A stretch of 64,000 nt of DNA from an uncultured Bdellovibrionales bacterium (GTDB lineage Bacteria; Myxococcota; XYA12-FULL-58-9; CAYXVF01). This document shows positions 9,527-45,172 of this stretch, piece after piece. Each line of letters begins with the position of its first letter. The first letter of the stretch is position 1. The stretch lies in assembly GCA_964468125.1 (NCBI GenBank), contig CAYXVF010000007.1:16531-80530 (forward strand), given 5' to 3'. Position numbers and translations under genes: made by a program. The notes beneath the pieces were generated by a model. The model was not told the DNA's origin and made no database searches. It saw nothing but the letters and a program-made list of their open reading frames with translations.

Positions 9527-9924
9527 CGGGAGCGCCCCCCAAGAGCAGCAAAACGGCCAGGATCCGGCCCTACAATGACCACGATGGCGCGCATTCGTAT
9601 GAAAAATCCCACTCTTAACAACCCTTTTTCCGCAAAGACGCCTTGATTTGGATCAGCTCTCGGCGGGGCTGTCAGACTCAACACCGACGGCGGCCCGTGG
9701 CGACCCAAAGGAGGTGCATTCTTTGGCCTGTGCGAACGTCACAACTCGACTTATTTGACAGGGCGAGATGCGAGGGTGGTGCGAGATCACGGACCTGGTG
9801 TTGGCCCAGGGGACGTCGTTCAACGACAACCGCTGACATTTCAAAGAGGACAAACCTTGCGCTAGCGCCGAAATTCGTGCACGTCGGGGCGCAACGCAGT
9901 GCGACAGCAGCTGGAGTAAAGAGC

Positions 9925-11022
9925 ATGGCGACCGTTTTCTATGGATTGGCCGGCGAGGGCCGAGGGCACGCGATGCGCGCCCGCACGGTGATCGAGCACC
10001 TGCGAAGAGAGGGCCACCGGGTCGTGATCTACACCTTCGGTCAGGCGCTCGAGGTCCTCGAGCCGATCTACGAGGGGACCGATGTCGAGATCAACGCGAT
10101 TCCGGGACTGCGCTGGGGCTACGTGGGCAAGAAGGTGAGCTTCTTCAAGACGACGTTCCAAGCCTTTCCCCTTCTCGCTCAGATCCCGTTCTACGCCCAC
10201 CGCATCGCAAAACGCATGCGCCAAGAGCGCGTCGACCTCGTTCTCTCGGACTTCGAGCCCATCACGATTCATGCGGCCAAGCGTGCGAAGGTGCCGCTGT
10301 GGTCCCTGGACCACCAGCGCTTCTTGCAGGTCTGTGACCTCGGCAAGCTCCCCTGGTTCGAGGCCTTCCGCGTCTGGTGCATGCGCACGGCCATCAACAT
10401 TGTCTACGGCGACCCGGATCGCATGTTCGTCTCGGGCTTCTATTTGCCGGAGCTCAAGAAGCCGAACCCCAAAGTCGAGCGCGTCGGCATCCTGATGCGC
10501 GACGTGGTGTTGAAGGCCAAGCCGACCAAGGGCGAGCATCTGCTGGCCTACATGCGACGGGATTGCCCCGAGCATTTCATCGACATGCTGGCAGGCTGCG
10601 GCCGCGAGGTCCGCCTCTACGGTCTCGGCAAGCAGGAGCCGCGCGGCAGCATCGTATACCGGGAGATCGACACGGAGCGCTTCATCGCCGATCTCGCCAG
10701 CTGCGCGGGGCTCATCTGCACCGCGGGCAATCAGCTGATCGGCGAAGCGATGTACATGTCGAAGGCGGTGCTCGCGCTTCCCGAGGCGAGCAACTCCGAG
10801 CAGCAAATGAACGCGCACCTTCTGAAAATGTCCGGCGCCGGGATGGTGGTCGATTTTGACAGCGTGAAGCCGGAGGACTTCGAGACCTTCATCGACCGCA
10901 CGGAGACGATGGGGCGTCGGATCGACCCGACATCGGTGTCTGCAAACGAAACCGTCCTGAGCGCGATCGATGCCCAGCTCGCGAGCCGGACGGTGCGAAA
11001 AGCGGCGCGCAAGGTCGGCTGA
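9925..11022 (+). CDS. glycosyltransferase (GT-B fold, GT28/MJ1255-like)
   Basis: N-terminal 'MATVFYGLAGEGRGHAMRA' matches the G-rich nucleotide-sugar loop of MurG/GT28-like enzymes. C-terminal 'CTAGNQLIGEAMYMSKAVLALP' is the donor-binding region. GGAG SD 9 nt upstream of ATG 9925. The listed ORF 9643 start is an upstream extension. Confidence 0.6.
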   Translation: MATVFYGLAGEGRGHAMRARTVIEHLRREGHRVVIYTFGQALEVLEPIYEGTDVEINAIPGLRWGYVGKKVSFFKTTFQAFPLLAQIPFYAHRIAKRMRQERVDLVLSDFEPITIHAAKRAKVPLWSLDHQRFLQVCDLGKLPWFEAFRVWCMRTAINIVYGDPDRMFVSGFYLPELKKPNPKVERVGILMRDVVLKAKPTKGEHLLAYMRRDCPEHFIDMLAGCGREVRLYGLGKQEPRGSIVYREIDTERFIADLASCAGLICTAGNQLIGEAMYMSKAVLALPEASNSEQQMNAHLLKMSGAGMVVDFDSVKPEDFETFIDRTETMGRRIDPTSVSANETVLSAIDAQLASRTVRKAARKVG

Positions 11023-11042: not shown

Positions 11043-13379
11043 CTAGGCGCGCTCGTTGTCGTCTTCGTCGATTTCTTCTTCGTCGTCGACTTCTTCGTAC
11101 TCGTATTCGTATTCTTCGTCGTCGCCGGGCTCTTCGTCCTCGTCGACCTCTTCGTACTCGTATTCGTATTCGTCTTCGGCTTCGCGGACCTCTTCGCCCT
11201 CGTCGTCCCCGGCGGTTTCGTCCTCTTCCTCGTATTCCTCTTCGTCTTCGTCGCCCTCTTCCGTATCGACGGAGGGAGGATCGAAGGAGGGCGGCACGGG
11301 CATCTCGACGGTCGGTCGGCTTTCGAGCGCCGCTGTGGCGGCCCCAGGGGATTCGATCCGAAGTGCAAAGCGAAGGGACGCTTCCCCGTCGACGCGGAGC
11401 GCGAGTACGAGGGAGATCCCCTGGTCTTCCCCGCGAAAGCCATCCACGTCTTTGACCGTGGTGCGGATGCGGTCCGCCCACAGATCCACCGGTGCGGAGA
11501 AGCTCAGGTGCACGGTGGTGCCGTCGATGCCCTTCACCGCGACAGCCCTCGCCTCGTGGTACTCCGATTGGGACGGCTCGTGATTCTGGCCTTCGATCAC
11601 CAAGACCGCCTGGTCGAGCCGAATGGGGATCTCCGTGGCGTAGATCAGTCGGCTACCGTCGTTCGCGCGCACCTTGGTCTCGAACACGACCTCCGGTGCG
11701 TCGATGGGGATCCGCAAAGAGCGCTCAACATCCAGAGTCCGGCGAGCGACGCTCGCGAGGGGCAAGGATACGGTGGCATCATAGTGGTAGGTCAGGTCGT
11801 CTTCATCGACCTCATTGCGCTCCACAGACCACTCGGCGTGCTCCGGAGTCAGGTCCAGGCCCGAGCCACTGAAGAGCTCCGCAGCACTCGCCCCCGCATC
11901 GAGGATCCAGTCGCGCATCCCGGAACGATCCGAACGATCGGTGTCGAGCGGGAGGTCCTGCTCCCGGCGTGGCAGAGGGTCGAGCGGACCCCGCGGGCCC
12001 CGAGCTTCGAGCTCCTGAGCGGATGCGAAGGGTGCTTCGGAGGCGCGGGCAAAGAACACCTCGTTGCGCCGAGGAGGGACATCAAAGAGCGTCTTCGCTC
12101 CGAGTCTGTCGTCGAGCGTCCGAATCGCACCACCCTGATGCGGGTCTATCCACGCGGTCAAATAGCGGGTGTTGATGAACACTTCATCGCGAAGATCACT
12201 GTCGCGGTCGTCTTCCTCCTCGCCGATGAAATCCTCGTCTCCTTGGACGAGCGCATCGATCATGAGCTCCGCGCGCAGGAGCTTTTCGTAGGTCGACGAA
12301 CGAAGAAGTGGGTCGGTGAAACCTGCGTGACGCCCGCGCCAATAGGCGTCAGGGGACTGGGCCGCAAAGATCATGCGCTGCGCGGTAGCGAGCTCGCCGG
12401 CCCACTCCGCTTGAAGACCTTCTTCCTCCATCGTGGCGACGGTCTCGCGCAGCTTGTCGCTCGCCCGGAGCATTCGACGCGCGAGCGTGTCGACTTCACG
12501 AAAGCTCTGTAGAAAATCGTGCCAGTCCACCGGCGCTACGCCGCCCGCGTCCGGCTCGATCACGTCGCAGCAGCCATGAATGAACTTCAGAGCGGTCACC
12601 GAACGCACCTGCTCGAAGCTATCGCCCGGGCGGACGGTCTCGATCTCCGGTCGCTTCCCACCCAACGCATCGAGAAAGCTCGCAAGCCAGCCGCGTTCAA
12701 ACGCCCAGGCTCGGCTTCCGAGCTCGAAGCCGAGCCGTTCGCCTCGGACCCACACCGAGATCACCGGTCGGCTCTGCCCGCCGGCGCGGTCGACCACCGA
12801 GTCGATCCAGCGGTACACGTCGGAGCCGACGATGGAGCGCGACAGGGTGTCATCGAGAATGAAGGCGGGAAGCTTGTGGCCACCGCGCTCGAACACCCCG
12901 AGGCCGCGATGGGGATAGTCATCGCGCAAGAACTGAGAGGCGGCGCCAAAACTGTAGAGCGTATCCGTGTCGCTGAGGAAGCGCGGCACCTCGGTGGTCC
13001 AGGCCAGCTCCGGGAGCCAAATGCCGCTCGGTGCCTCGCCCACGAGCGATTCCCAGTACTCCGTGCTCATCTCGAGCTGGGCGCGAATGTCCTCTTCGGG
13101 CAGGAGCGCTGGCAAGCCGCCGTAGAACAGGCCTCCGAGGACCTCTACCTGCTCACGCAGAACGAGGGCTCGGATCCGCATGAGGAGCGGCTCGCGGAAC
13201 TTGGAGAGAAAATCCAAGAGGTGGCCGCCGAAGTGGAGGGCGACGCGGAGAGTGGGCCGAGCCTCGAGGTGTTCGATGAAAGGCTCGTAGAATCGCTCAC
13301 ATGCGGTGGAAAGCTCATCCTTTCCAACCGAAAGCGGCTGGTGAAAGGGAATGACGAGCTGGAGCTGAATCGGTTCCAT
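11043..13379 (-). CDS. glycoside hydrolase family 57-like protein with acidic low-complexity C-terminal tail
   Basis: N-terminal 'LVIPFHQPLSVGKDEL' is the GH57 region-I HQP motif. 778 aa. The last about 110 aa are D/E/Y-rich '(EYEYEYEEVDEDEE)x2'. Confidence 0.6.
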   Translation of the reverse strand: MEPIQLQLVIPFHQPLSVGKDELSTACERFYEPFIEHLEARPTLRVALHFGGHLLDFLSKFREPLLMRIRALVLREQVEVLGGLFYGGLPALLPEEDIRAQLEMSTEYWESLVGEAPSGIWLPELAWTTEVPRFLSDTDTLYSFGAASQFLRDDYPHRGLGVFERGGHKLPAFILDDTLSRSIVGSDVYRWIDSVVDRAGGQSRPVISVWVRGERLGFELGSRAWAFERGWLASFLDALGGKRPEIETVRPGDSFEQVRSVTALKFIHGCCDVIEPDAGGVAPVDWHDFLQSFREVDTLARRMLRASDKLRETVATMEEEGLQAEWAGELATAQRMIFAAQSPDAYWRGRHAGFTDPLLRSSTYEKLLRAELMIDALVQGDEDFIGEEEDDRDSDLRDEVFINTRYLTAWIDPHQGGAIRTLDDRLGAKTLFDVPPRRNEVFFARASEAPFASAQELEARGPRGPLDPLPRREQDLPLDTDRSDRSGMRDWILDAGASAAELFSGSGLDLTPEHAEWSVERNEVDEDDLTYHYDATVSLPLASVARRTLDVERSLRIPIDAPEVVFETKVRANDGSRLIYATEIPIRLDQAVLVIEGQNHEPSQSEYHEARAVAVKGIDGTTVHLSFSAPVDLWADRIRTTVKDVDGFRGEDQGISLVLALRVDGEASLRFALRIESPGAATAALESRPTVEMPVPPSFDPPSVDTEEGDEDEEEYEEEDETAGDDEGEEVREAEDEYEYEYEEVDEDEEPGDDEEYEYEYEEVDDEEEIDEDDNERA
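11083..11199. repeat. imperfect tandem direct repeat (about 57-60 nt x2) encoding the EYEYEYEEVD acidic tail
   Basis: 'gtcgacttcttcgtactcgtattcgtattc...' repeated at 11083-11139 and 11140-11199. Confidence 0.7.
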
Positions 13380-13412: not shown

Positions 13413-14813
13413 TCAATCGACCCCCTGGAGCGCATCTAGGCGCGATCGGGCCTCTTCGTGGCGCGCATCTTCATCGTTGGGAATGTACTGGAGCAGCTCC
13501 TGAAGCGACTCGACGGCCCGCTGGCGCTCTCCGAAGCGAATCGCCTGCTCCGCCGCGAAGATGTACGACTCGAAGGTTTCCTGTAGCTCACGCTCGGCCT
13601 TCCGGAGACTCTTGCCGATATCGTAGTAGAGCGGCGGTCGCTCATCGATGCCCTCCAAGAAGAGACTGGCCTTCTCGAAGTACTCGATCGAGCGCGCGAG
13701 GTTCGGTCGAGCGACCGTCCGTGTATCGAAGGCTGCCTTGCCTAGGTCGAAGAGCTGCTGCGCCCGGTCCACGTCTACTTCGGGCAGTGGACTCTCGTTC
13801 ACCGAAATCCGAGCGACCCCCCACCGCGGCACCGAGCCCGCGAGGGGGTGGTGCACGAAGGCGATCAGATTGCGCCCGTTGTAGAGAAGCTCGCGCGGCA
13901 GGTCGATCGTGTGTCCCGCGGTCCAGCGCGCGGGGGAGGCCGGTGCGTGGCCAATGCGCTTGCCATTGAGCTCCACACTGACCTCGTCGTCCGTGTCGAT
14001 GCCCCCGGTTGCGAACTCGAGGGTCGCCTTGCCCCCTTCGTAGTCGAAGGCAAAGGTAGCCGAACGCGGCGTGAAGACATCCACCTTGCCCGCGCCAAAG
14101 CGCAGCTCGGCGTTGCTCTCGTTGACGACGAAGACCTCGCCGCTCCGATCGACTTTCGGGCGATGATTGAGAACGAAGTAGGCGCCCACGGTCGCGGCAC
14201 CCAAGACGAGCGCGAGGGAGAGCGCGGCAACGACTTTCGAGCGCGCGAAGCGACGGCGACGACGGCGACGACGCGACATCGATCCCGATGCCGAGGACGA
14301 ACGAGAGCCTGAGCGATCACTGCCGAGGCGTACGGGCGTGTTCGGACGACGGCCGGCGCTCATCAACTCGCGCACCGAGTCGGACTCGAACGCTTGGGTT
14401 TCCGCATTCGCCAGATGTCGCCGTTGACTGGCATTGCCTCCGTCCCAGGCGAGCCGCGAGCCACTCGGCCGGTTCCCCTGCTCCTCTTCGTCGAGCTCCA
14501 TCTTGAACTCGAAGGTCACCGGTCCCACGCCGATGCGGTCGCCGTCGTAGAGGTACGCCTCGGTGGTCAGGCTCTCGTTGAGGAAAGTTCCGTTGGCACT
14601 GCCGATGTCGCGAAGGACAAATTCTCCGTATTCGAAGGCGATCTGGCAGTGACCGCGGCTCACGTTGGTGTCGAGGAGCACGAGGTCGCAGGAGGGCATT
14701 CGGCCGATGGTGACGTGCGGCTGATCGAACTCAAACTCCCTCCCTTTGCCCTTGCCGGCGACGATGAAGAGCTTGAATCCCATACTCGCGGGAGTGTAGT
14801 GCGCCTCGCTCAC
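13413..14813 (-). CDS. FHA-domain membrane protein (cytoplasmic FHA - RS/RR-rich linker - single TM - periplasmic domain); terminal gene of the Tad-like operon
   Basis: 'MGFKLFIVAGKGKGREFEF...VTIGRMPSCDLVLLDTNVSRGHCQI...FVLRDIGSANGTFLNE' is an FHA domain. This is followed by 'RRRRRRRRFARSKVVAALSLALVLGAATVGAYFVL', a TM helix. GTG 14813 overlaps the tadC stop as TGA-G-GTG. Alternative ATG at 14783. Confidence 0.8.
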   Translation of the reverse strand: MSEAHYTPASMGFKLFIVAGKGKGREFEFDQPHVTIGRMPSCDLVLLDTNVSRGHCQIAFEYGEFVLRDIGSANGTFLNESLTTEAYLYDGDRIGVGPVTFEFKMELDEEEQGNRPSGSRLAWDGGNASQRRHLANAETQAFESDSVRELMSAGRRPNTPVRLGSDRSGSRSSSASGSMSRRRRRRRRFARSKVVAALSLALVLGAATVGAYFVLNHRPKVDRSGEVFVVNESNAELRFGAGKVDVFTPRSATFAFDYEGGKATLEFATGGIDTDDEVSVELNGKRIGHAPASPARWTAGHTIDLPRELLYNGRNLIAFVHHPLAGSVPRWGVARISVNESPLPEVDVDRAQQLFDLGKAAFDTRTVARPNLARSIEYFEKASLFLEGIDERPPLYYDIGKSLRKAERELQETFESYIFAAEQAIRFGERQRAVESLQELLQYIPNDEDARHEEARSRLDALQGVD

Positions 14814-14814
14814 C

Positions 14815-15672
14815 TCAGCCGCCTCGATACAGCCAGTCGAACACCAGGGGCCCCGCCAGAATCACCCAGATCGTCGGGAAGATGAAGACCACCAAGGGGA
14901 TCAACATCTTGACCGGAGCCTCGCCCGCGGCCTTTTCAGCCCGCTGGAAGCGCTCGCTGCGCAGCTGGTCCGCCTGGATCCGCAGGGTCTTGCCGAGACC
15001 GGTGCCGAGCCGGTCCGCCTGGATCATCGCCGAGAGAAAATTCGAGAGGGCCGGCAGACCGACCCGTGAGCTGACGGATTCCATCGCTTCTGCGCGGGTC
15101 TTGCCGACGCGGATCTCTCCGAGCATGCGCGCGAGCTCGTCGCGGAGTGGGCCGGCTTTTCCGCGATCCACCACCTTCGCGATCCCTGCGCCGAAATCGA
15201 GCCCCGCCTCCACGGAAAGCGTCAACAGATCGAGTTGGTAAGGCAGGTCACGCAGAATCAGCGCGTGCCGCTGCTTCACCTTGTCGCGCAGCCAGACGAA
15301 GGGATAGACCGCGCCCAAGACGAAGGTCGCAAGCGACAGCCAGATGGACCAACCGGTGGCGAGAGCGAACCACACGCCAAGGGCAAGCCCCCCGAGGCCC
15401 GCGAGCATCGCCCAGAGGAGCAGCTCCGCAGGGCTCAAGCCCTGGAGCCCCCCTGCCATCACGATCGCACGCTTGACCCGCGAGTCGAGCCTCTCAGGCA
15501 CCACGTGGCCAAACTGGCGCACCCACGTTTCGACGAGGGCCCCTCTGCGTGGGCGATTTCGACGATCCTGTCCCAGGCGCGCGATGGCCACCGCGGCGCG
15601 CACCCGCGAGGTCGCATAGTGGGCAAGGAGGAACGCCACCGTGGCGCAGAGGATGGGAACCAAAAGCTCCAT
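14815..15672 (-). CDS. tadC: Flp pilus assembly inner-membrane platform protein TadC-like (T2SSF domain)
   Basis: T2SSF-type sequence 'LPYQLDLLTLSVEAGLDFGAGIAK...' with 3 TM segments. ATG at 15672 overlaps the tadB stop (ATGA). Confidence 0.75.
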   Translation of the reverse strand: MELLVPILCATVAFLLAHYATSRVRAAVAIARLGQDRRNRPRRGALVETWVRQFGHVVPERLDSRVKRAIVMAGGLQGLSPAELLLWAMLAGLGGLALGVWFALATGWSIWLSLATFVLGAVYPFVWLRDKVKQRHALILRDLPYQLDLLTLSVEAGLDFGAGIAKVVDRGKAGPLRDELARMLGEIRVGKTRAEAMESVSSRVGLPALSNFLSAMIQADRLGTGLGKTLRIQADQLRSERFQRAEKAAGEAPVKMLIPLVVFIFPTIWVILAGPLVFDWLYRGG

Positions 15673-16514
15673 CACACGCGCACCGCAATGACACGCCGAA
15701 TGAACAACGCGCCACACGCCTCCATCAACACGACCAACGCGATCATCGTGTAGCCGAACCAGTGGCTCAACATCGGCCGAGTGAGGTCCGGTCGGATCGC
15801 GTCAAAGGCGAGCCATACCAGGACCGGCATCGCGCCAATCACGACCCCCTGGAGCCGGCCTTGCGCCGTGAGCGCACGGATACGTCCTTCGATCCGGAAG
15901 CGTTCCCGGATTGTGCTCGCGATCCGGTCGAACATCTCCGCTAGGTTGCCACCGAGTGACCTCGCCGTATTGACCGCGGTCACGACGAGCAACAGATCAT
16001 CGCTGCCGACCCGGCCCGCGAGATTCTCGAGCGCTTCTTCCGTGCTCGCGCCGAGGCGAATCTCCCGCACGGTGAGACCGAACTCCTGCGACAAGGGTGC
16101 GGAGGCTGTACGCCCCGTCTCCTCGAGCGCCTGCTGAAAGGTCATCCCCGCCCGGAGGGCCGCTGCGAGGCCGCCGAGCGCGTCGACGAGCTGGCGCTCG
16201 AAGAGTTTGATGCGACGGGCCCGATAGAAGCGGACGAGCAGGGTCGGGCTAGCCGCCCCAAATCCGACGAGGACGACCGTGACAACGGGGCCAAAGAGCA
16301 AGAGGCCCAGTGCCGCCCCCAAGGCCGTGATCGCCACCGTGAGGATCACGAGCTGACGCGGCCCGACGAAGAAGAACATTTCCGAGAGGTCGCTCACCCG
16401 CCGAGCCAGGTAGCGCTCCTCGTACTGGGCAAAGGCGCGCCGGAGCACGTCGATGACGACCACCGTGAGAAAGAAGACCGCGCCCGCGGTCATGAGAAGA
16501 ACGAGCACGTCCAT
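15672..16514 (-). CDS. tadB: Flp pilus assembly inner-membrane platform protein TadB-like (T2SSF domain)
   Basis: 'FERQLVDALGGLAAALRAGMTFQQALEE...' is a T2SSF/GspF-like domain with N- and C-terminal TM helices. 1-nt overlap with cpaB. Confidence 0.75.
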   Translation of the reverse strand: MDVLVLLMTAGAVFFLTVVVIDVLRRAFAQYEERYLARRVSDLSEMFFFVGPRQLVILTVAITALGAALGLLLFGPVVTVVLVGFGAASPTLLVRFYRARRIKLFERQLVDALGGLAAALRAGMTFQQALEETGRTASAPLSQEFGLTVREIRLGASTEEALENLAGRVGSDDLLLVVTAVNTARSLGGNLAEMFDRIASTIRERFRIEGRIRALTAQGRLQGVVIGAMPVLVWLAFDAIRPDLTRPMLSHWFGYTMIALVVLMEACGALFIRRVIAVRV

Positions 16515-17344
16515 CAGTTCGGCACCGTCTCGGTCTCGCGGCGGTCGCCGCGAATGATCTCGACCTTGAAGATCTTGGACTGTGTCTTCGAGATCCGTTT
16601 CGAGCGCTCACCGGTGAGCAGGGTCTGGAGAGTCGTACGACCTTCTCCGAGGTCATAGATCTCGTTGTCCTCCGGCGAACGCAGCGTGAGGTAAAGCTGG
16701 CCGAGCTCCTGCCCCAAAAGAAGCATCTCCGCCGCCTCCGGGAGCACGTGCAGGGTGACCGTGTTGTAGGCGCGCTCCGCCTCGCTCAAAAGCCTCCGGT
16801 TCGTGCGACCCCCGATCCTTCCCGTTGCGAGGACGATCACGTTCTGAAGCATCGTGACCGCGGCCATGTCCCGCCTCCCGTCGCGAAAAACGCCGAGCAC
16901 GTCGACCCGGTCGCCCGGCTCGATCCAGTGGTGCACAGAGCTTTCCGGGCTGACGCGTACGGACACGGCACGCCCCTTCTCCTGAATCGTACTCGAGAGC
17001 TTCTGATCACCGGCGAGCGTGTGAATGTGCGAGTAGAGAAGCACGTCACCCGCGAGCATGGGCGTTCCGAGCTTTCGGCCCACCACCGGCGCGCGATTGA
17101 AGTCTTCTACCGTGACCACCGACCGCGTCACTGAGCGGCGCGGCAAGGTGCCTACCGCCAATGCTTCGCGGGTCAGGGTATCGCCGACCTGCAAATCGCG
17201 GTTCGCGACGATCACCTCCACCGGGTCCCAACCGCGGGTAATCGCCTCGCGCTGCTTCTTGACGAGCAAGTAAGCCACGACACCGGCGAGAACCGCGAAG
17301 ACCGCGGCAATGATGAGGGGAGTACGTCCTTGCAGCATGGTCAT
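16514..17344 (-). CDS. cpaB: Flp pilus assembly protein CpaB/RcpC (SAF domain)
   Basis: N-terminal TM 'LIIAAVFAVLAGVVAYLL' followed by a SAF-like domain 'VIVANRDLQVGDTLTREAL...'. Typical CpaB length of 276 aa. Confidence 0.75.
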   Translation of the reverse strand: MTMLQGRTPLIIAAVFAVLAGVVAYLLVKKQREAITRGWDPVEVIVANRDLQVGDTLTREALAVGTLPRRSVTRSVVTVEDFNRAPVVGRKLGTPMLAGDVLLYSHIHTLAGDQKLSSTIQEKGRAVSVRVSPESSVHHWIEPGDRVDVLGVFRDGRRDMAAVTMLQNVIVLATGRIGGRTNRRLLSEAERAYNTVTLHVLPEAAEMLLLGQELGQLYLTLRSPEDNEIYDLGEGRTTLQTLLTGERSKRISKTQSKIFKVEIIRGDRRETETVPN

Positions 17345-17345
17345 C

Positions 17346-17549
17346 TCACGGAATGGGCAAGCTCAGGCCCGTGTGAATGGAATCGATGTAGATGTCGAAG
17401 GTGTTGACGAAGAGTCCAAAGACCGAGACGCGCCCGGCGCCGTCGGGTTCGGGCAGGTAAGGCACAAAGAGTACGACCGCCATCATCAGGAGGAGCAGGC
17501 CGTACTCCGTGGTGGCTTGGCCGCGTTCACTCTCATGGATTCGTTTCAT
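17346..17549 (-). CDS. flp: Flp/Fap-family pilin (67 aa prepilin)
   Basis: 'MKRIHESERGQATTEYGLLLLMMAVVLFV' carries the Flp G-x4-EY processing motif followed by a hydrophobic helix. GGGAGG SD 7 nt upstream. The ATG overlaps the upstream stop (ATGA). Not present as a separate entry in the ORF track; it is embedded in ORF 17346..17873. Confidence 0.75.
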   Translation of the reverse strand: MKRIHESERGQATTEYGLLLLMMAVVLFVPYLPEPDGAGRVSVFGLFVNTFDIYIDSIHTGLSLPIP

Positions 17550-18229
17550 CGTCGCGCCTCCCATCGCAGGGTGGCCGTGCTCTTCGCCTGCCCTGCTTCC
17601 TCGTCGCTGTAGACCGCGAGGTCGAGGTTCTCCTCCCCGTCGCCGAAGGAGGCGAACGCCCGCCGTCCATCTGAGAGTTGCGCGCGGGCCGGACCAAAGC
17701 GCTCTCCGTATCGCTCGATCAACGCATCGCCCTCGACCCTGCAACTCAGAGTCACAACCTCGCGCACTACCGCACCGTCGCGGCTCGCGCTGTGGTGGAG
17801 GGGCTCGCAGCTCTCGTCGATCGGAGCGCGTACGGTGTAGCCGCCCTCTCCAAAGAAACGACGACTCACCCACGCCACGGAGACCTTGCCCTGGCGAGCG
17901 ACCACGACGCTGCGACGCTCGTCACCGTCGGACGCGGTCAAGAGCTCCTCCTCTTCGTTGTAGCGGCGACTCACCACAAACCCCTCGCCGCGCCAGACCG
18001 CTTCGTAGTGCTCGACGATGGTGATCGGGTCGTCCATGCTCAGGAAGTAGGCGAGCTGTCGCTCATCACCATTGAGACGAACCCCTTCCCCGGCAGACAG
18101 GAGCCGATGCTCCGGGTAGTAGGCCCAGCGCAGATCGACCGGTGCACGACCGTCGCGGGCGGCGGCCACACCAGCGAGTGCCGCGAGCGCGCATCCGGCG
18201 AGGAGCACCATCGGAAAAGTACGGATCAT
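17546..18229 (-). CDS. secreted hypothetical protein encoded inside the Tad-like operon
   Basis: Signal peptide 'MIRTFPMVLLAGCALAALAGVAAA', then an acidic soluble domain of about 200 aa. ATGA overlaps on both sides. Confidence 0.6.
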   Translation of the reverse strand: MIRTFPMVLLAGCALAALAGVAAARDGRAPVDLRWAYYPEHRLLSAGEGVRLNGDERQLAYFLSMDDPITIVEHYEAVWRGEGFVVSRRYNEEEELLTASDGDERRSVVVARQGKVSVAWVSRRFFGEGGYTVRAPIDESCEPLHHSASRDGAVVREVVTLSCRVEGDALIERYGERFGPARAQLSDGRRAFASFGDGEENLDLAVYSDEEAGQAKSTATLRWEARR

Positions 18230-19353
18230 CGACACCTCCTGGATTGGGCATCGGCGCACCCCATGAATGCGTTGCCTCGAGCGTTCAGGGCCTCGAGCAT
18301 GTTGCTGCAGAGATCGCGGGGGTTGTCGAAAATCGGCAAGGTCTCGAACGACGTCACCGCGCCGTCCTCCTGTAGCTGCCCGCGCGAGACCCCGGTACGG
18401 CTGAAGGGATTGAACTGCCCGGCGAGCTCTTCGTAGCGTTCGCGATCAACCGCAACGCAGGAGCGGGCGTCGAGATAGGGGCGCGACACGACGTAGCGTC
18501 CCGCGTCCTTCGCCCCAACGAGGCCGAGAAGCCCACCCACCAGACCTCCGCCGGGAAGAACCTTCGGTGCCTCATCGTGAAAGCGCTCGACGACGTGCGC
18601 AAAGGCGCGCCGCGACTCGACCGACTCACTGGGCAGAACCGAGTAGCCGCTGTTGATTCGCCAGCTGTCCACGAGGAGCGTGGAGTCAACCGGCTGCCCT
18701 TCGTCGCGAAGCTCCCGTCCCTGCTGCCCCTGCACCACCGGGGTGAGGTCAAAGCGCGAAACCTCGGCGAGCGCAGCGAATCGTTCCCGGTCAGAGGCGC
18801 GCACCGGCGCAAGAATGCGAACGGAGCCGCGGCCGGTGACGAGACCGCGGTCGTTTAACCCGGCCCGTTGAAAGAAGCCCGCCGCGATGTCGTTCGTAGA
18901 GCCTCCCAATCCCAGCGCTCCGAGGATGAGAGACACGGTCGCGTTCGGCGCGGGGATCTCGAGGTTGGCCACGTCGGGAAGCACCGGCGCGCGCTCCTGG
19001 CGAGCTGCCGTCGGGAGCATCACCGCCGAGACGCTTTGCCGTGCCTGACCTGGAAGAAGCCTCGTGCGTGCCGCGTCGAGATCGAGATAAAGCGCACCGA
19101 CGCGGTCCCGCACGCGATCCCTGGCCTCGTTGAACTTCTCCGTATGCCTGGCGTTTTGACTCTCATAGTCCGAAAGGGGCTCTTGCGCGAAGGCCCAGGT
19201 ATTGAATCGCGCGATCTCCTGGGACTTGAGCTTAAAGAGGCCGACATCGATCAGGTAGACGGAGCCGTAGAACACGCCGATGAGAAGCGGCATGATCAAA
19301 GCGAACTCGGTCAACGCGGAGCCGCGCTCGTATTTCTCCGTTCGCCCTCTCAT
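18226..19353 (-). CDS. TadE/TadG-like pseudopilin (375 aa)
   Basis: N-terminal 'ERGSALTEFALIMPLLIGVFYGSVYL' is the TadE-like motif (PF07811-type). Confidence 0.7.
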   Translation of the reverse strand: MRGRTEKYERGSALTEFALIMPLLIGVFYGSVYLIDVGLFKLKSQEIARFNTWAFAQEPLSDYESQNARHTEKFNEARDRVRDRVGALYLDLDAARTRLLPGQARQSVSAVMLPTAARQERAPVLPDVANLEIPAPNATVSLILGALGLGGSTNDIAAGFFQRAGLNDRGLVTGRGSVRILAPVRASDRERFAALAEVSRFDLTPVVQGQQGRELRDEGQPVDSTLLVDSWRINSGYSVLPSESVESRRAFAHVVERFHDEAPKVLPGGGLVGGLLGLVGAKDAGRYVVSRPYLDARSCVAVDRERYEELAGQFNPFSRTGVSRGQLQEDGAVTSFETLPIFDNPRDLCSNMLEALNARGNAFMGCADAQSRRCR

Positions 19354-21005
19354 CAGAACATCATCGTGTTGTCGGCGAAGAAGTCTGCGATCACACCGCT
19401 CAATCCCAGGCTACCCAGGAGTCTGTCGGTCACGACACTCTTTGGCGCAAGGCGAGCGCCCCAGTAGGGATTGAAGAGATTCGGCGGCTCCCGCCAGGCA
19501 CCAGGGCGATGGTAGTAGACCTGCGCGCGGGCAATCGCGTTGACCCCACGAAGCGCTCCCGTCCCCAGGAGCCCGTCTTCCCCGATGCGCGCGTCGAGAC
19601 TCGCCACTTCTTCGCCGCGCCGGATCTCGAAGCTCAGATCCGACCCGGATTCCATTTCCCCCGGCGTCTTGTTCAAGAACACCCAAACGTCGGGCTGGTT
19701 GTAGTCGCGCACACCGTCAGCGGCGGCGTCGCTCTTCGACTTGAACCGAAAGTAGCGGCCGAGGCCTCGCCACTGGAGCCGCTGGCCGAACTCGTTCTCG
19801 TCGACGCATTGGAAGCCCGCCGCGTCTGGATCGCTCACCAGGGTAAAGAGCCTGGCTCCGAGAAAACCGGTGCTACCGTAGTCGTCGGGCTTCTCGTAGC
19901 GGCAGTAGCGATAGCCATCGCGGCCGGACTGCAGACTCGCAAAACCATCCCGCGCCGCGCGCGCGAGCGCAGGAATCGTCAAGATTCCGGTGCGAATGTC
20001 TTTCGAGGCCATCACCTCGCCGCGGGAGAGAAACGACGCTTCGTCCGCGCTGCGACCGGTATCCTCGAGCGTGTTCTCGTCGCCGAGACGAGTTAGGAGC
20101 TTCGAGGTCCCCTCGAATTGCAGGCCCGCAAAACCGGTCGCGAGCTCGTTGAGGCGTTCGCTGAGCCGCTTGCCCGCGCGTCGAGTGGACTTCTCCTGCG
20201 TCACCGATTCGAGCAGCTCGAGGGGCTCGGTGATCTCGTCGAGGATCCCGTTGCGCCACACGATCGTTCGCTGCCGCGCACCCGCAGCGAAGCGCGACGC
20301 ATTGATCACCTCTGCAAACGCCCGCTTTGATTCCGGAGACTTTTGGAGCGCCCCCGGGTCGAAGGCGTCGATGTAGGCGTACACGTTGTAGGCGTTGAAC
20401 GCGTAGGAGAGTGGGTGCAAACGCGCCCGCGGATCGTTTGCTTCGGCGATCTCTGGAGCTCCTTCGAGCAGGCGAGCGGTAGTGCTCGCCACCATGCCCG
20501 CCGCCATCGCGGTGTAGAGGGTGCTGAAGGCTGGCTCGCTCGCAAGTGCGGCCTCGAGGGCCGTCAGCTTCACCTCCAGCAAACCCGCCCGCACCTCGTA
20601 GACCGCTTGCAGCGATTGGCCGATGCCTTCGAGCGCCGAACCGGCGCTCGCGGTGAAGGGGATCGCGCTCAAGAAGCGACCGTAGGAGGTCGTGATGTCT
20701 CCGAGGTATCCGATGACCCCCACCGAGTAAGTCGAGCGCGAGACTTCTGCGTGCAGCTCGAGCAGCTCGAGCTGTCGAGCGGCGATCGCGCGGTTGCTGA
20801 AAGCGATGAAGTTGAAGCTCCGCGCAGACTGAGTGGCGAGCGAGTAGGCCGATGCATCGGCTGCGTTTTGCAGGGTGATCTTCTCGTAGACGGCGCGAGA
20901 GAAGTTGTAGGAAGTGTACATGCCGATCGCGAGGATCACGAGGGCTACAACCCCAAGTAGCGCCACCTGGCCGCGTTCGCGACGCGATGCTCGTCGCAAG
21001 CTCAT
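19353..21005 (-). CDS. TadG-like pseudopilin / pilus-associated protein (about 550 aa)
   Basis: N-terminal 'RRERGQVALLGVVALVILAIGMY' is Tad_N/TadG-like. Start placed at ATG 21005, which overlaps the upstream stop as ATGA. The listed ORF extends to 21029. Confidence 0.65.
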   Translation of the reverse strand: MSLRRASRRERGQVALLGVVALVILAIGMYTSYNFSRAVYEKITLQNAADASAYSLATQSARSFNFIAFSNRAIAARQLELLELHAEVSRSTYSVGVIGYLGDITTSYGRFLSAIPFTASAGSALEGIGQSLQAVYEVRAGLLEVKLTALEAALASEPAFSTLYTAMAAGMVASTTARLLEGAPEIAEANDPRARLHPLSYAFNAYNVYAYIDAFDPGALQKSPESKRAFAEVINASRFAAGARQRTIVWRNGILDEITEPLELLESVTQEKSTRRAGKRLSERLNELATGFAGLQFEGTSKLLTRLGDENTLEDTGRSADEASFLSRGEVMASKDIRTGILTIPALARAARDGFASLQSGRDGYRYCRYEKPDDYGSTGFLGARLFTLVSDPDAAGFQCVDENEFGQRLQWRGLGRYFRFKSKSDAAADGVRDYNQPDVWVFLNKTPGEMESGSDLSFEIRRGEEVASLDARIGEDGLLGTGALRGVNAIARAQVYYHRPGAWREPPNLFNPYWGARLAPKSVVTDRLLGSLGLSGVIADFFADNTMMF

Positions 21006-21982
21006 GGTGCTTCTCCGAGGCTGAACCACACGGGCTCGCGGCGGTTGTCCTCAAACAAATTCGACTGCATCTGCATGGCGTAGCTTGCGCGCAGAGGCAG
21101 GAGATAGAGGTCGTGGCGCTCGGCGAGCCATCGCAGGGTCCGCACTTCCTTGAGCCACTGGCTGGTCGTGAAGAAATCGTCGATGGGTCCGTCGCCGTCC
21201 GAAGAGCGCACCGCGTCCGACAACGTGCGCCCATCGCTCAGGCGCGTCTCGAGCTGCACCCAGTCACCCAGGTCGCTATTGAACGTCCGGCTATGCAGAA
21301 GCTCCTGCGCGAGCCAGAGCTCGAAGAGAATCCGGTTCACGAGCGGGATCCGCAGCGGATAGAGCACACGCACCTCGAGGGCGAGCGTGCCGAGCCCGTC
21401 GGGCGTGTTGGGATCGGCGAACATCGCCACGTCGTCAAAGTCGATCTCGCCGCTCGGGTAGCGCAGGGGCGCGCGCGGATCGACCGATTCGGAGAGGCGC
21501 GCCTGTCGGCTCGCCCACTCCCGAGCCGCCTCGAACTCTTCGCGGGTCGGGCGGGTCACGGCGACTTCGATGAGGGAGATGTCCTGAGCGAGCCCGGCGA
21601 TCTCGACGCCCAGCAGATCGCCGGCGAGACGCTCCACGGTGGCGGTGCCCGTGTCCACAGCCTCGGTGATCTCAGCGGCAGCTTTGACCTTGGCCCACGT
21701 TGCGAGATAGCGGCCGGCGTCATCCGTGCGATCGTAGAGGGGCAAGGTCGCCACCAGCGCGGCGTTGCGCATGACGTTCCAGTCCGCGTTGTGCACGATG
21801 CCCGCGCGGGTCGCGCAGTAGGCGGCGTATTCGGTGAGAATGCGACCGTGCTGCACGAGCATCAGCTGCAGCGCGCCGAGGGCGGCGAAGATCATCACGG
21901 GCATGATGATCGCCGTCTCGACCAGTGCTTGGCCGCGCTCGCCGCGGCGACCGCGACCCGTATGGGACCCAAGGCTCTTCAA
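21002..21982 (-). CDS. TadE-like pseudopilin (326 aa); first gene of the operon
   Basis: 'GERGQALVETAIIMPVMIFAALGALQLMLV' is the classic TadE N-terminus. A 300-nt non-coding region follows upstream (21983-22288). Confidence 0.7.
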   Translation of the reverse strand: MKSLGSHTGRGRRGERGQALVETAIIMPVMIFAALGALQLMLVQHGRILTEYAAYCATRAGIVHNADWNVMRNAALVATLPLYDRTDDAGRYLATWAKVKAAAEITEAVDTGTATVERLAGDLLGVEIAGLAQDISLIEVAVTRPTREEFEAAREWASRQARLSESVDPRAPLRYPSGEIDFDDVAMFADPNTPDGLGTLALEVRVLYPLRIPLVNRILFELWLAQELLHSRTFNSDLGDWVQLETRLSDGRTLSDAVRSSDGDGPIDDFFTTSQWLKEVRTLRWLAERHDLYLLPLRASYAMQMQSNLFEDNRREPVWFSLGEAP

Positions 21983-22288
21983 TGACCTACTTCCTGACGA
22001 GGCGCCCCGCCGGCGAAGGCGGACGCGCTCCCTTTCCTTATCGGCACCGGCAGGTGCGCTGGTGCGTGAGTCCGGCGATCGAAAACCGAGCTAAACGCCT
22101 GATTTTTGGTGGATTTCCACAGGGCTGGGCGGAGCCCAGGGCCCGCCCGGTCGAGCTGCACGCCGCGCCCGTCGCCGATCTGTGGTGGCCTGTCCACAGA
22201 TGTGTTCGACATCCTACAGGGACACACCACACTTTTTGCCGCCGATCGCGGTTTTCCGGGCCTTCTGACGTGGGTGGGTGATGGTCCG

Positions 22289-23608
22289 ATGTTTGCAGAA
22301 CCTTTCCGCGGCATGGATCGTTCCAAACTGAGAGTCTCATCATTCGCGCTCGCGCTGTCGGTGACGGTCGGCTGTGGCGTCGAATGGGTGGACGTAGAAG
22401 GAAGCGCTGTCGACTCGAGCCTCTTTGTCCCGAACGGGAGCACCGGCGGGGAGCAGAACGCGGGCGGCAACGACAACGACTCGGCGCTCGACTGTCCCGT
22501 CGACGAGCAGGCCGAATGGTCACGCTCGGGCTATCACGATTTCCTCCAGGCGAATTGCGGCCTCTGCCACCTCTTCGGTGAGCCCGCCACCGGCGCCTTC
22601 GCAGACCCGGACCTCTCTGTCGCATACTCCGAGTATTCGCTGCGCCCGGAGCAGGTCGTCGAGTTTTCGCTGAGCGCCACGCACAAGCCACCGTTCACGG
22701 GCCCGCATCTGCAGCCTGAGCTCGATGCGATCCTCGACGACTGGGAGGCGGTGCTGGGGCGCGTTGCCGCATGCGAGGCCGCGGAAGCGGAGAACACGAA
22801 CGACACGGAGTCACCCGGCGAGGAGCCTCGGGAAATCGTCACCGACCCGCTACTCGCGACCGTTGTCGAGTTCACCGCCCCGCTCGCCATGAACGCGACC
22901 GAAGAGGGGGTCACGCTGAGCTGGGAGCTCGCGAGCGCGCTGACGAGCGTCACGACGCCGGCGAGCCTCACCGACGTCGTCTTCGAGCTGACGGTTCGCA
23001 CGGTGGAGACCGCCACCGGGCAGCGCGCCTACCTGTTCTCCTCCCCCACCTTCAGCACGGGACCGCAGGCACTGAGCTTTGGCCGAATCGAAGTCCGCGT
23101 AAATGCCGCTAGGCCGAGCAGCGCGACGACCTTTCACAGCCTCGCGATCGCCGTTCCTTCAACGAGCACGATGACCGCGACCACCTCGGCGATGCCGGTC
23201 CCCTTCGACTTCAGCGCGAGCGACACCCTCGAGGTGGGCTTTGGCTTCATCAACGCCATCGACGACTTCGATCCCACCGAGCCTCCGCCGGTGGGTGGCG
23301 GAGACGACCCAGTCGGCGGCGGTGCTGATCCGGTTCCCGGCGTCACCTTCGCAACACTGAGCACCGGCGACGGGGTCTTCGCCCTCGAGTGCGTGAGTTG
23401 CCATTCAGCGGCGAATCCTGCTGGCGGACTCGATCTCACGAGCTACATGAGCACGCTCATGACGGTCACACCGAACGACCCGGATGCGAGCACGCTCGTG
23501 CAGCGCATGGAAGACCCAATGAACCCGATGCCACCAGCGGGGCTCTTGCCCCAGGCAATGATCGATAGCGTCCGCGAATGGATCGCATCAGGAGCACCTG
23601 AGGGCTGA
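22289..23608 (+). CDS. lipoprotein with two CxxCH motifs and a C-terminal planctomycete-cytochrome-C (PSCyt1)-like domain
   Basis: Lipobox 'LALSVTVGCG'. 'NCGLCHLF' and 'ECVSCHSAANPAGGLDLTSY...NPMPPAGLLPQAMIDSVREWIASGA' fit the PSCyt1 consensus C..CH...GGL.L...MPP...L...WI..GA. Alternative start at ATG 22313. The listed ORF starts at TTG 22106. Confidence 0.6.
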   Translation: MFAEPFRGMDRSKLRVSSFALALSVTVGCGVEWVDVEGSAVDSSLFVPNGSTGGEQNAGGNDNDSALDCPVDEQAEWSRSGYHDFLQANCGLCHLFGEPATGAFADPDLSVAYSEYSLRPEQVVEFSLSATHKPPFTGPHLQPELDAILDDWEAVLGRVAACEAAEAENTNDTESPGEEPREIVTDPLLATVVEFTAPLAMNATEEGVTLSWELASALTSVTTPASLTDVVFELTVRTVETATGQRAYLFSSPTFSTGPQALSFGRIEVRVNAARPSSATTFHSLAIAVPSTSTMTATTSAMPVPFDFSASDTLEVGFGFINAIDDFDPTEPPPVGGGDDPVGGGADPVPGVTFATLSTGDGVFALECVSCHSAANPAGGLDLTSYMSTLMTVTPNDPDASTLVQRMEDPMNPMPPAGLLPQAMIDSVREWIASGAPEG

Positions 23609-23644: not shown

Positions 23645-25237
23645 GTGAGCCATCTGCTTCTTCTAACCCTGCTGAGCCAAGCCCCTCAGGTTGAGACGGA
23701 GTTGGTCCTGAGCGAGGCCAACCCGGAGGAAACGATCACCATCGACATTCCTTCCGGCGAGGTGTCGATTCTGCAGCTGAACGTCCTCGACCCGGACTTC
23801 CCAGACGAAGGGGAGCTCTACATCAACGAGATGGGGCCGATCGCGCTCTTTCCCGGCGGAAACGGCGGCCTCGACAGCCAAACCGTCAACATCAACATCG
23901 CGCTCTCCCCGGAGCAGCAGGGTTGGTTCGTGGCCGGCCAGAATGCCCTGCGCTTCACCCGGGTCGCGACCGCGGGATACACGATTTTTAGGATCACCGC
24001 TCTCGGCGATCTCGCTCTCCTCACCTACGACGCGGTCATGCCCACCACGGACCCGGTGGACCAAGCGATGGAGAAGGCCTCCCTGCTCTATCGCCGGCTC
24101 GTCGGCCTACGCACGTCCGTGGACAACCCAACGGTCCGAGCGATGGCCGACTACATCGCCATCGACGATTGGGTCGGTGCGGCGATGGTCGCGACCGAGG
24201 AAGCGGGCTTCTACAACCACGTGGTTCGGGATTTTGCCGCGAAGATGTCAAACCAAGAGGTGAGCGTTGGAGCGCCACTCAACGACTTCGTAGCGACGAT
24301 CGTAGGCATCACCCGGGACGAGCTCGATGCGCGTGAAATGCTCACCGGCGACTTCTTCTATATGGCGACCGGCGACGCAGTGGCCGTGCCCTTGGACGTT
24401 CTTCAGGATGTGGTGACCTCGAACAATCACTACTCCGCCCTCGAGAACGAGCGCTACGACCTCGCTGCAGTTCTGAGCCGCATCGATCAGCAGTACATTC
24501 GCGACCCCTCTGCGACCGACGAGCTCGTAAGCCACCCGGAACCCGCCGGGGTGCTGACCACGCGAGGCTGGATGGAAGCGCACGCGACCGCGGGGACCAA
24601 CCGACGACTCGCGGAGTTTGCGATCAGCGAGTTCACCTGCACGGAGATGGAGCAGTGGGCGGACTCGACGAGCCCAGACGCATTCGTCTGGCGCGACGTG
24701 GACCGCTTCCCTGCCGGTGATGCCGCCCGCTACCAGACCGAGTGCAAGTCCTGCCATGCGAACCTCGATGCGTTCGCCGGCGCCTTCGCGCGCTTCGACT
24801 TCGAGAACGGGTTCACGAAGTACGCGCCGTACTACGCGGACGGCGAGGATGACCCGGACGCGATGAAGCAAGAACCCATGGGCGTCTCCGAGAAGATGAC
24901 CCACAACTCGGACGTCTTCCCGGAGGGATACTCGCTCACCGACGACCACTGGACGAACCTCGCCCGAAGCCCGGCAAACGAAGCACGCTTTGGTTGGCGC
25001 GGCGATGTGAACGAAGGGCAAGGAATCGCGAGCTTCGCGGAGGCGATCGCCAACTCGACGGCCTTCTCGCGCTGCATGGTCGAGCGGGTATTCAACGAGG
25101 TGTGCCTCCGTGCTCCAAGCGCTGCCGAGCTCGAGCTCATCAGTGGCCTCGCCTGCGACTTCGAGGCGAGCGGATACAACCTCAAGCAACTCTTTCAAAC
25201 CGTGGCTGCTCGTCCCGAGTGCCTCGGAGCGCACTAG
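23645..25237 (+). CDS. CxxCH-containing hypothetical protein (530 aa), possibly related to planctomycete DUF158x/159x families
   Basis: GTG start with a GAGAGAGGAG SD. Single 'ECKSCHANLDAF' heme-binding-type motif in the C-terminal third. Family assignment is by gestalt only. Confidence 0.5.
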   Translation: MSHLLLLTLLSQAPQVETELVLSEANPEETITIDIPSGEVSILQLNVLDPDFPDEGELYINEMGPIALFPGGNGGLDSQTVNINIALSPEQQGWFVAGQNALRFTRVATAGYTIFRITALGDLALLTYDAVMPTTDPVDQAMEKASLLYRRLVGLRTSVDNPTVRAMADYIAIDDWVGAAMVATEEAGFYNHVVRDFAAKMSNQEVSVGAPLNDFVATIVGITRDELDAREMLTGDFFYMATGDAVAVPLDVLQDVVTSNNHYSALENERYDLAAVLSRIDQQYIRDPSATDELVSHPEPAGVLTTRGWMEAHATAGTNRRLAEFAISEFTCTEMEQWADSTSPDAFVWRDVDRFPAGDAARYQTECKSCHANLDAFAGAFARFDFENGFTKYAPYYADGEDDPDAMKQEPMGVSEKMTHNSDVFPEGYSLTDDHWTNLARSPANEARFGWRGDVNEGQGIASFAEAIANSTAFSRCMVERVFNEVCLRAPSAAELELISGLACDFEASGYNLKQLFQTVAARPECLGAH

Positions 25238-44992: not shown

Positions 44993-45172
44993 GCCACCGG
45001 TGTGGCCATACTTCGGCTGTGGTTTCGCCTCTCGGGCTCACCACGATTTGACGGATGCGGGAGCGAGCCATTTCGCATTTCGGGCTTGGCCGTGTCAGTA
45101 TGGACGCGCGGCGGGCCCGCCGCGACGCAAGGATGGGAGCCAGACGCGGGAGGAGCCCGCGGAGGCCTGGAG

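Follow-up and report, generated by a model that had tools for sequence, protein, structure and literature searches.

Myxobacterial predation has the Kil pilus as its central device for killing on contact, with tips that recognize and kill prey. In Myxococcus xanthus, Kil cluster II (mxan_4648-4661) contains the Tip4 cassette (Seef 2021, PMC8460266; Herrou 2025, PMC12075869). Within this cluster, mxan_4660, mxan_4659 and mxan_4658 encode KilM, KilN (which has a TadG-like N-terminus) and KilL, respectively, mxan_4655 encodes the Flp protein KilK, mxan_4652 encodes KilB (CpaB), and mxan_4651 and mxan_4650 encode KilG and KilH, with FHA proteins next in order (PMC8460266, PMC12075869). KilL, KilM and KilN form a heterotrimeric tip, KilK is the adapter that joins tips to the KilP filament and is not a major pilin, and the tip cassette as published consists of three minor pilins plus this adapter Flp (PMC8460266, PMC12075869). 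Transcription of kilK occurs at very low levels (Herrou 2025, PMC12075869), and the C-terminus of KilK, as read from primer sequences, is LNLPFP (PMC12075869). Two further genes, mxan_4657 and mxan_4656, occupy the slot before kilK and two more, mxan_4654 and mxan_4653, lie between kilK and kilB, all without a known role (PMC8460266); the searchable literature holds no mention of mxan_4656 and mxan_4657 beyond their listing, solely as 'unknown function', by Seef 2021 (PMC8460266). The Tip3 cassette corresponds to mxan_1146-1148 and kilO to mxan_1150 (PMC12075869), and from the gene numbering there is one unmentioned open reading frame (ORF), mxan_1149, between them; the supplement to Herrou 2025 contains neither mxan_1149 nor mxan_4656/4657 (PMC12075869). 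Here we describe gene X, which occupies the corresponding slot in a 64,000-nucleotide stretch of DNA from an uncultured Bdellovibrionales bacterium (assembly GCA_964468125.1, contig CAYXVF010000007.1, positions 16,531 to 80,530; hereafter the window), and the protein family, family X, to which its product of 227 amino acids (aa) belongs.

On gene order and content, the operon that contains gene X corresponds to Kil cluster II, a Tip4 cassette with its platform, and is not a generic Tad locus. As in M. xanthus, KilM-, KilN- and KilL-like genes are followed by an uncharacterized ORF, a Flp gene, a KilB-like gene, KilG- and KilH-like genes and an FHA gene (Table 1). Also as in M. xanthus, and as judged over 64 kb only, the operon is split from an ATPase/secretin cluster; Pfam searches of the large ORFs of the window found no T2SSE ATPase, secretin or prepilin peptidase (peptidase_A24). 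The Flp of the window ends with LSLPIP, which resembles the C-terminus of KilK, and the Flps of two other loci described below (L009 and L022) end with LNLPFP. Given that the operon is a cluster II counterpart, this Flp is probably, by analogy, a KilK-like adapter minor pilin rather than a major pilin, and the system may function in contact-dependent killing of prey as does the Kil pilus. The two clusters differ in that Kil cluster II has two ORFs in the slot and two between kilK and kilB, whereas the window has a single slot ORF. Among the TadB matches listed (down to 49% identity), none was a named M. xanthus entry. An earlier, sequence-only reading of this DNA had placed gene X in a Tad-like system, a description that gene order and content now narrow to a Kil-type cluster II. 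It had also proposed that canonical loci have nothing at this position, which holds for classical tad loci but not for Kil loci, as these carry mxan_4657/4656 and mxan_1149 there. The pseudopilin and Flp genes between which it had placed gene X are borne out, the former being TadE-like and TadG-like by Pfam.

Gene X is a member of a family that sequence profile collections do not contain. An exhaustive phmmer search of 1.84 billion representative sequences (50% clustering; E<=1e-3) identified 44 cluster representatives, 3 of them spurious or doubtful and most of them 220-270 aa in length, whereas a word-indexed search with the gene X protein returned three close relatives and a word-filtered profile search of 5.8 billion proteins gave 4 hits. 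P0007 (1893 aa) and P0032 (1422 aa, ankyrin) matched spuriously, through repeats. P0041, a 509-aa metagenomic protein, is a doubtful member with a tandem module, PxYPG...Y-x-x-x-[LW]-x-x-x-G-[FW], present in four copies that weakly resemble the modules of family X, so that a module of this kind may also occur apart from tip cassettes. Sequence profile searches of Pfam, NCBIfam and the PDB with the gene X protein gave zero matches and, when all 41 members were compared with Pfam at E<=1, DUF1795/DcrB was unmatched and no family was matched consistently. The earlier statement that the protein has no detectable family thus stands for these three collections but not beyond them, since the 44 representatives exist. 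In the 41-sequence alignment, G83, C141 and C163 are invariant and about a dozen other positions are near-invariant. The hallmarks of the family are an export signal, two modules, PxYPG, R-x-[ML]-A-Y-x-x-T-x-D, Y-E-x-x-W-x-x-x-G, the Cys pair and a C-terminal W-Q-E; the distant members in L013 and L021 and P0047 are without the Cys pair.

The position of family X is conserved over large evolutionary distances. A profile built from a 12-sequence subset of the family alignment served in recovering loci; L018 (a chimeric contig) and L003, L014 and L023 (duplicates of the window, L006 and L022, respectively) were set aside. The family hidden Markov model (HMM) matched one ORF per locus and, wherever flanking sequence exists, this ORF is located directly after a KilL-like gene and directly before a Flp gene, as documented in the window, L001, L002, L004-L008, L013, L015-L017, L019 and L021. 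The recovered loci cover TadB identities from 95% to 51% with the order around X unchanged. In L013 and L021, X was detected by the family HMM only, with E about 1e-18. All members with recovered context are in Tad/Kil tip cassettes, consistent with a co-occurrence of orthologues with this operon type only, the check proposed in the sequence-only reading, and none of the recovered loci places a homologue in a setting unrelated to tad loci.

Loci in which the cassette and the platform are separated argue that family X is tied to the tip genes and not to the machine. In the Polyangia locus L022 (308-4573), a stand-alone cassette consists of KilN-like (599 aa) and KilL-like (417 aa, PF07811) genes, X (P0047) and Flp; it adjoins unrelated NADH dehydrogenase genes, with no CpaB, TadB or TadC gene nearby. 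Conversely, L009 and L020 have CpaB-TadB-TadC-FHA genes without adjacent tip pilins, and have no family X member. The layout of L022 resembles that of Tip3, mxan_1149 and kilO, where a single unstudied ORF separates the tip trio from the adapter Flp, away from the machine. We conclude that gene X has a constant place as the fifth gene in the Kil-type tip cassette, in the order KilM-like, KilN-like, KilL-like, X and KilK-like Flp. The system itself is known; what is new is family X, together with the generalization that the tip trio and the adapter of tip cassettes have a fifth gene, for an exported protein, between them.

L012, from a metagenome-assembled genome (MAG) of the Myxococcaceae, has a full cassette in which the slot (7886-8907) encodes two exported proteins, one of 119 aa with a signal peptide and one of 221 aa with a LLLGC lipobox. 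These are probable counterparts of mxan_4657/4656. As candidate homologues of X they were rejected, together with a polytopic 236-aa protein of L009, with hhalign probabilities <=2.6%. The 119-aa protein does loosely resemble one X module by eye, with hhalign E values of 0.02-0.05 that are not significant. Extra genes without a Pfam family are present between the Flp and CpaB genes in L021 (5573-7129) and L009 (8337-9047), encoding the 236-aa polytopic membrane protein in both loci and a 262-aa exported protein in L021, and these probably correspond to mxan_4654/4653.

Gene X is a real gene, retained in ~15 independent loci and having, against its L001 orthologue, a ratio of nonsynonymous to synonymous substitution rates (dN/dS) of 0.18. 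Its ATG (18229-18227) shares an ATGA with the stop codon (TGA, 18228-18226) of the 375-aa TadE-like gene that precedes it, and its own TGA (17548-17546) shares a second ATGA with the start codon (ATG, 17549-17547) of the Flp gene (67 aa), so that the coupling to both neighbours noted in the sequence-only reading is present in the raw sequence. The ATG at 18229 is favoured over a GTG at 18259, ten codons earlier, because a canonical AGGAGG is positioned 5 nucleotides upstream of the ATG. The overlap of the X stop and Flp start codons as ATGA occurs in 8 loci (the window, L001, L005, L008, L015, L016, L017 and L019), and L004 and L013 come close to it. The Shine-Dalgarno (SD) sequence of the Flp gene lies within the conserved C-terminal codons of X. 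Most loci have TGG CAG GAG (W-Q-E) there, and the window has TGG GAG G; part of the C-terminal conservation of X may therefore serve Flp translation. At 17555-17563 (-) in the window, and at the same site in L001, L005, L008, L015-L017 and L019, coding and translation-signal constraints are thus combined in one stretch of DNA. By this arrangement X and Flp are translationally coupled, and hence produced together.

A comparison of the window with L001 gave a dN/dS of 0.18 both for gene X (77% identical proteins) and for Flp, compared with 0.08-0.10 among the tip pilins and 0.03-0.04 among CpaB, TadB and TadC. Gene X and Flp therefore have the highest dN/dS in the operon, though the value for gene X is one of purifying selection. 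Over longer range, gene X proteins are 23-30% identical where the CpaB and TadB proteins are 61-67% and 68-71% identical, respectively.

An AlphaFold2 monomer model of the gene X protein, built with the 41-sequence alignment, has a predicted local distance difference test score (pLDDT) of 93.9 and a predicted template modelling score (pTM) of 0.73. A helix at residues 4-26 and a short linker lead into two alpha+beta modules in tandem, each built from two strands, a helix and four further strands. The conserved residues of the N-terminal module are P39, G47, G54, R57, Y61, D66, Y75, G83, V86, A99 and S122. The N- and C-terminal halves align by hhalign with E 1.6e-4 over 60 columns in register, pairing R-x-M-A-Y-x-x-T-x-D...Y-E with T-E-x-x-x-L-x-C...Y-D, which argues for an internal duplication. 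In the model, strands 141-151 and 154-163 make up one hairpin; C141 (17807-17809) opens the first of them and C163 (17741-17743) closes the second, and a C141-C163 disulfide is therefore likely in the modelled structure; such a bond would fit an extracytoplasmic location.

Fold comparison of the model identified DcrB (Z 9-10), SciW (8-9) and MTC28, Mog1, EagT6, LpqN and PsbP (6-8). These belong with a Mog1p/PsbP-like fold group, which includes the PA1624 N-domain (6td9), DcrB/DUF1795 (6e8a), SciW (6xrb), EagT6 (1tu1), MTC28 and LpqN and is made up of non-enzymatic binders that are often associated with membrane complexes. Family X differs from this group in its two-module architecture, of which a match covers one module only, and in the lack of any profile match between them; furthermore, the Eag chaperones of type VI secretion effectors are cytoplasmic. 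Reading X as an enzyme was rejected, as no catalytic motif and no enzyme family or fold emerged from the Pfam, NCBIfam, PDB profile and fold searches; the known periplasmic enzyme that the sequence-only reading had considered as its alternative is likewise not seen in those searches.

Taken together, these observations are best accommodated by X being a Sec-exported, disulfide-stabilized and non-enzymatic binding protein of the tip cassette, either a loading factor or a passenger of the tip, a description to which we would give about an even chance. The accessory factor or tip/cargo protein of the sequence-only reading is thereby kept as the best class of explanation, on the context and the non-enzyme results, with the role itself a matter of inference. 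Through the conserved translational coupling, X would be produced together with the adapter Flp; it would then be exported and lose its signal peptide. In the periplasm, the double Mog1p/PsbP-like sandwich may bind the tip complex of minor pilins, the adapter or both, and X might then aid tip assembly and loading on the platform before polymerization or, alternatively, stay bound and be carried out on the tip. The latter option is modelled on PilY1 of type IVa systems or on the docking of TcpF/CofJ on type IVb minor pilins. PilY1 and TcpF/CofJ are non-pilin, Sec-exported proteins that are encoded within or beside minor-pilin genes and associate with the tip complex. The docking of TcpF on TcpB has been cited in the Kil-pilus literature. 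The likeness of these proteins to X is in gene context only; they have no Pfam or PDB profile match or fold relation to X, and PilY1, with its beta-propeller, is 5-7 times the size of X.

Several observations weigh against this explanation or limit its reach. The loci are a sample of capped size, mostly from MAGs of uncultured Myxococcota, and family X is not universal among Kil loci, as the slot in L012 holds unrelated-looking proteins. Each fold match covers one module only (~90-116 residues, with 4-11% identity and Z <=10), and the Foldseek comparison proposed in the sequence-only reading gave no significant whole-chain match in the PDB, leaving a per-module Mog1p/PsbP/DcrB-like resemblance; with partial fold matches and no whole-chain match, the term 'binding protein' draws on a weak analogy. 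Gene adjacency and coupling indicate co-expression, not function, and mxan_1149 and mxan_4656/4657 are compared with X by gene position alone. The hydrophobic N-terminus is unusually conserved (G20 in 97% and V21 in 85% of members) and could be a retained anchor. Binding to pilins, localization to the tip and secretion are all proposed from context and by fold analogy.

An alternative that concerns the N-terminus is that X is a bitopic inner-membrane assembly protein that, like PilN/PilO or GspL/GspM, uses an uncleaved helix to position the tip pilins on TadB/TadC. To our knowledge, Tad systems have no PilN/O equivalents. The N-terminus of the gene X protein consists of MIR (R3), 21 uncharged residues and an A22-A23-A24/R25 site, and the mature protein has a predicted isoelectric point (pI) of 5.1. 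The sequence-only reading of an acidic protein with an N-terminal export signal therefore agrees with these values, the signal being judged by inspection. The mature proteins of the family have a median pI of 5.3 and two Cys residues. Across the family, basic residues at positions 3-4 are followed by a median of 20 uncharged residues that end A-G-V-L-T/S-A; the strong conservation of the [AS]-A-x-A-G-V-L-T/S-A motif, its G-x-x-x-A spacing and the single confident AlphaFold2 helix over residues 4-26 are as expected for an anchor. A conserved [AVL]-x-A site is, however, present ~seven residues past the hydrophobic stretch (A31 in 84% of members), the window subclade with its six-residue-shorter linker has the canonical A-A-A/R at residue 24, and X accompanies the tip cassette even without platform genes nearby (L022). 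On these features the N-terminus is probably a cleaved Sec signal, and we regard the anchored assembly protein as doubtful. Three other assignments of the N-terminus were rejected. X is not pilin-like, as it has no G/xxxxE class III signal and the conserved G20 closes the hydrophobic stretch on its C-terminal side. It is not a lipoprotein, as column 13, the Cys of L10-A11-G12-C13 in the window protein, is Cys in 6/40 members and the boxes of close relatives are non-canonical. Nor is it a substrate for twin-arginine translocation; RR is present in about half of the members and the window protein has a single Arg.

It is unlikely that X is a secreted effector or carrier, either a Tip4-associated killing factor that is loaded on the tip and delivered or one pushed out as in type II secretion. 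Tip4 (kil cluster II) is reported to kill without the type III secretion system T3SS*, and an associated toxin or an intrinsic toxicity has been inferred (Herrou et al. 2025, PMC12075869). The location of X in a Tip4-like cassette, its export, acidity and predicted disulfide, and its status with Flp as the fastest-evolving protein of the operon are consistent with such a factor. A dN/dS of 0.18, on the other hand, indicates purifying and not diversifying selection, there is no immunity-like partner gene, and no signature of a toxin, enzyme or pore-forming protein was found in the Pfam, NCBIfam, PDB profile and fold searches. As the slot proteins of the Myxococcaceae are not detectably homologous, the M. 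xanthus phenotype is also not transferable to X. A related and quite unlikely proposal is that X and its positional counterparts (mxan_4656/4657 and mxan_1149) supply the tip with the non-pilin subunit that it has been missing, docked on KilLMN and presented to, or injected into, prey; if true, this would explain the T3SS*-independent killing attributed to Tip4. It is very unlikely that X is a periplasmic immunity-like protein for self-protection, or a co-transcribed general envelope protein with no direct role in the pilus, for although X, as a small and fast-evolving exported protein whose gene neighbours those of a device for contact-dependent killing, would fit the pattern of an immunity gene, and the closest folds (DcrB, PA1624, MTC28 and LpqN) are those of envelope proteins with roles that vary or are not known, the KilL-like/X/Flp order is strict down to 23-30% identity, no cognate toxin gene is adjacent, and the start/stop overlap and the presence of the Flp SD in X codons argue for a stoichiometric partnership.

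As a binding protein of the tip cassette or otherwise, family X moves with the tip genes apart from the machine and is translationally locked to the adapter pilin, which draws attention to the slot genes of Myxococcus. Its presence in a broad set of uncultured Myxococcota makes it a testable candidate for a fifth component of the tip cassette, be it a loader, a passenger or an effector.

The features of the window that bear on gene X are listed in Table 1. The prepilin motif is complete in 2 of the 3 minor pilins (G/QALVE and G/SALTEF), the TadG-like protein having G/QVALL without Glu at +5. The TadC ORF as called in the window overlaps TadB by 46 nucleotides, whereas its L001 orthologue is called at 285 aa from the TadB stop; judging from the L001 gene, the true start in the window is probably near 15672.

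Table 1. Gene X, its sequence and structural features and the other genes of the Kil-type operon in the window
Feature	Position	Strand	Basis or remark
TadE-like minor pilin, 326 aa, KilM-like position, first operon gene	21002..21982	(-)	PF07811 E 1.9e-6
Large TadG-like minor pilin, 558 aa, KilN-like position	19353..21029	(-)	PF13400 E 2e-5; annotated as is mxan_4659
TadE-like minor pilin, 375 aa, G/SALTEF, KilL-like position	18226..19353	(-)	PF07811 E 0.0018, below curated cut-off; order as mxan_4658
Shine-Dalgarno AGGAGG of gene X	18235..18240	(-)	Inside end of upstream KilL-like gene, 5 nt before ATG
Gene X, 227-aa exported protein	17546..18229	(-)	ATG start; ORF list, family, synteny, dN/dS
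Putative N-terminal export signal of X, residues 1-24	18158..18229	(-)	By inspection
Predicted N-terminal alpha+beta module of X, ~residues 36-128	17846..18124	(-)	AlphaFold2 model, alignment
Predicted C-terminal alpha+beta module of X, ~residues 134-227, diverged duplicate of N-terminal module	17549..17830	(-)	hhalign, model
Shine-Dalgarno GGGAGG of Flp gene	17557..17562	(-)	Formed by W223-E224-A225 codons of gene X
Flp-type pilin, 67 aa, ERG/QATTEYGLL motif, C-terminus LSLPIP, KilK-like	17346..17549	(-)	ORF list; motif
RcpC/CpaB homologue, KilB-like	16514..17344	(-)	PF16976 E 8e-22
TadB-type platform protein, KilG-like	15672..16514	(-)	PF00482; 52% identical to Myxococcaceae orthologue
TadC-type platform protein, KilH-like, GTG start, 300 aa	14815..15717	(-)	PF00482
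FHA / YscD-cytoplasmic-domain protein, last operon gene	13413..14813	(-)	PF16697 + PF00498; kept in all long loci

Some of the other loci have genes for lipolytic enzymes in or close to the operon. In L019, a patatin phospholipase gene (9664-10500) is inserted between the TadC and FHA genes and, in L013, a Lipase_3 gene (14198-15703) lies two genes past the FHA gene, after a 245-aa ORF. It is possible that these encode predation effectors attached to Kil-like operons.

Upstream of the operon in the window there is a divergent pair of genes (22106-23608 and 23645-25237, both (+)) that also adjoins the operon in L001. One protein of the pair has a Planctomycete cytochrome c domain (PSCyt1) and the other has a sub-threshold PSD2/DUF1585 match only (E 0.005; 17.0 versus a 25.8-bit cut-off). 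A 1323-aa ORF without a Pfam family is present further away, at 45002-48973 (+). At the other end of the operon, the FHA gene is followed by a gene (11043-13379, (-)) for a GH57 alpha-amylase/4-alpha-glucanotransferase, and a GH57 gene also follows the FHA gene in L001, L004, L006, L008, L014 and L019, a conserved linkage to the pilus operon. The GH57 protein of the window has a ~75-residue tail rich in Asp, Glu and Tyr (EYEYEYEEVDEDEE...).

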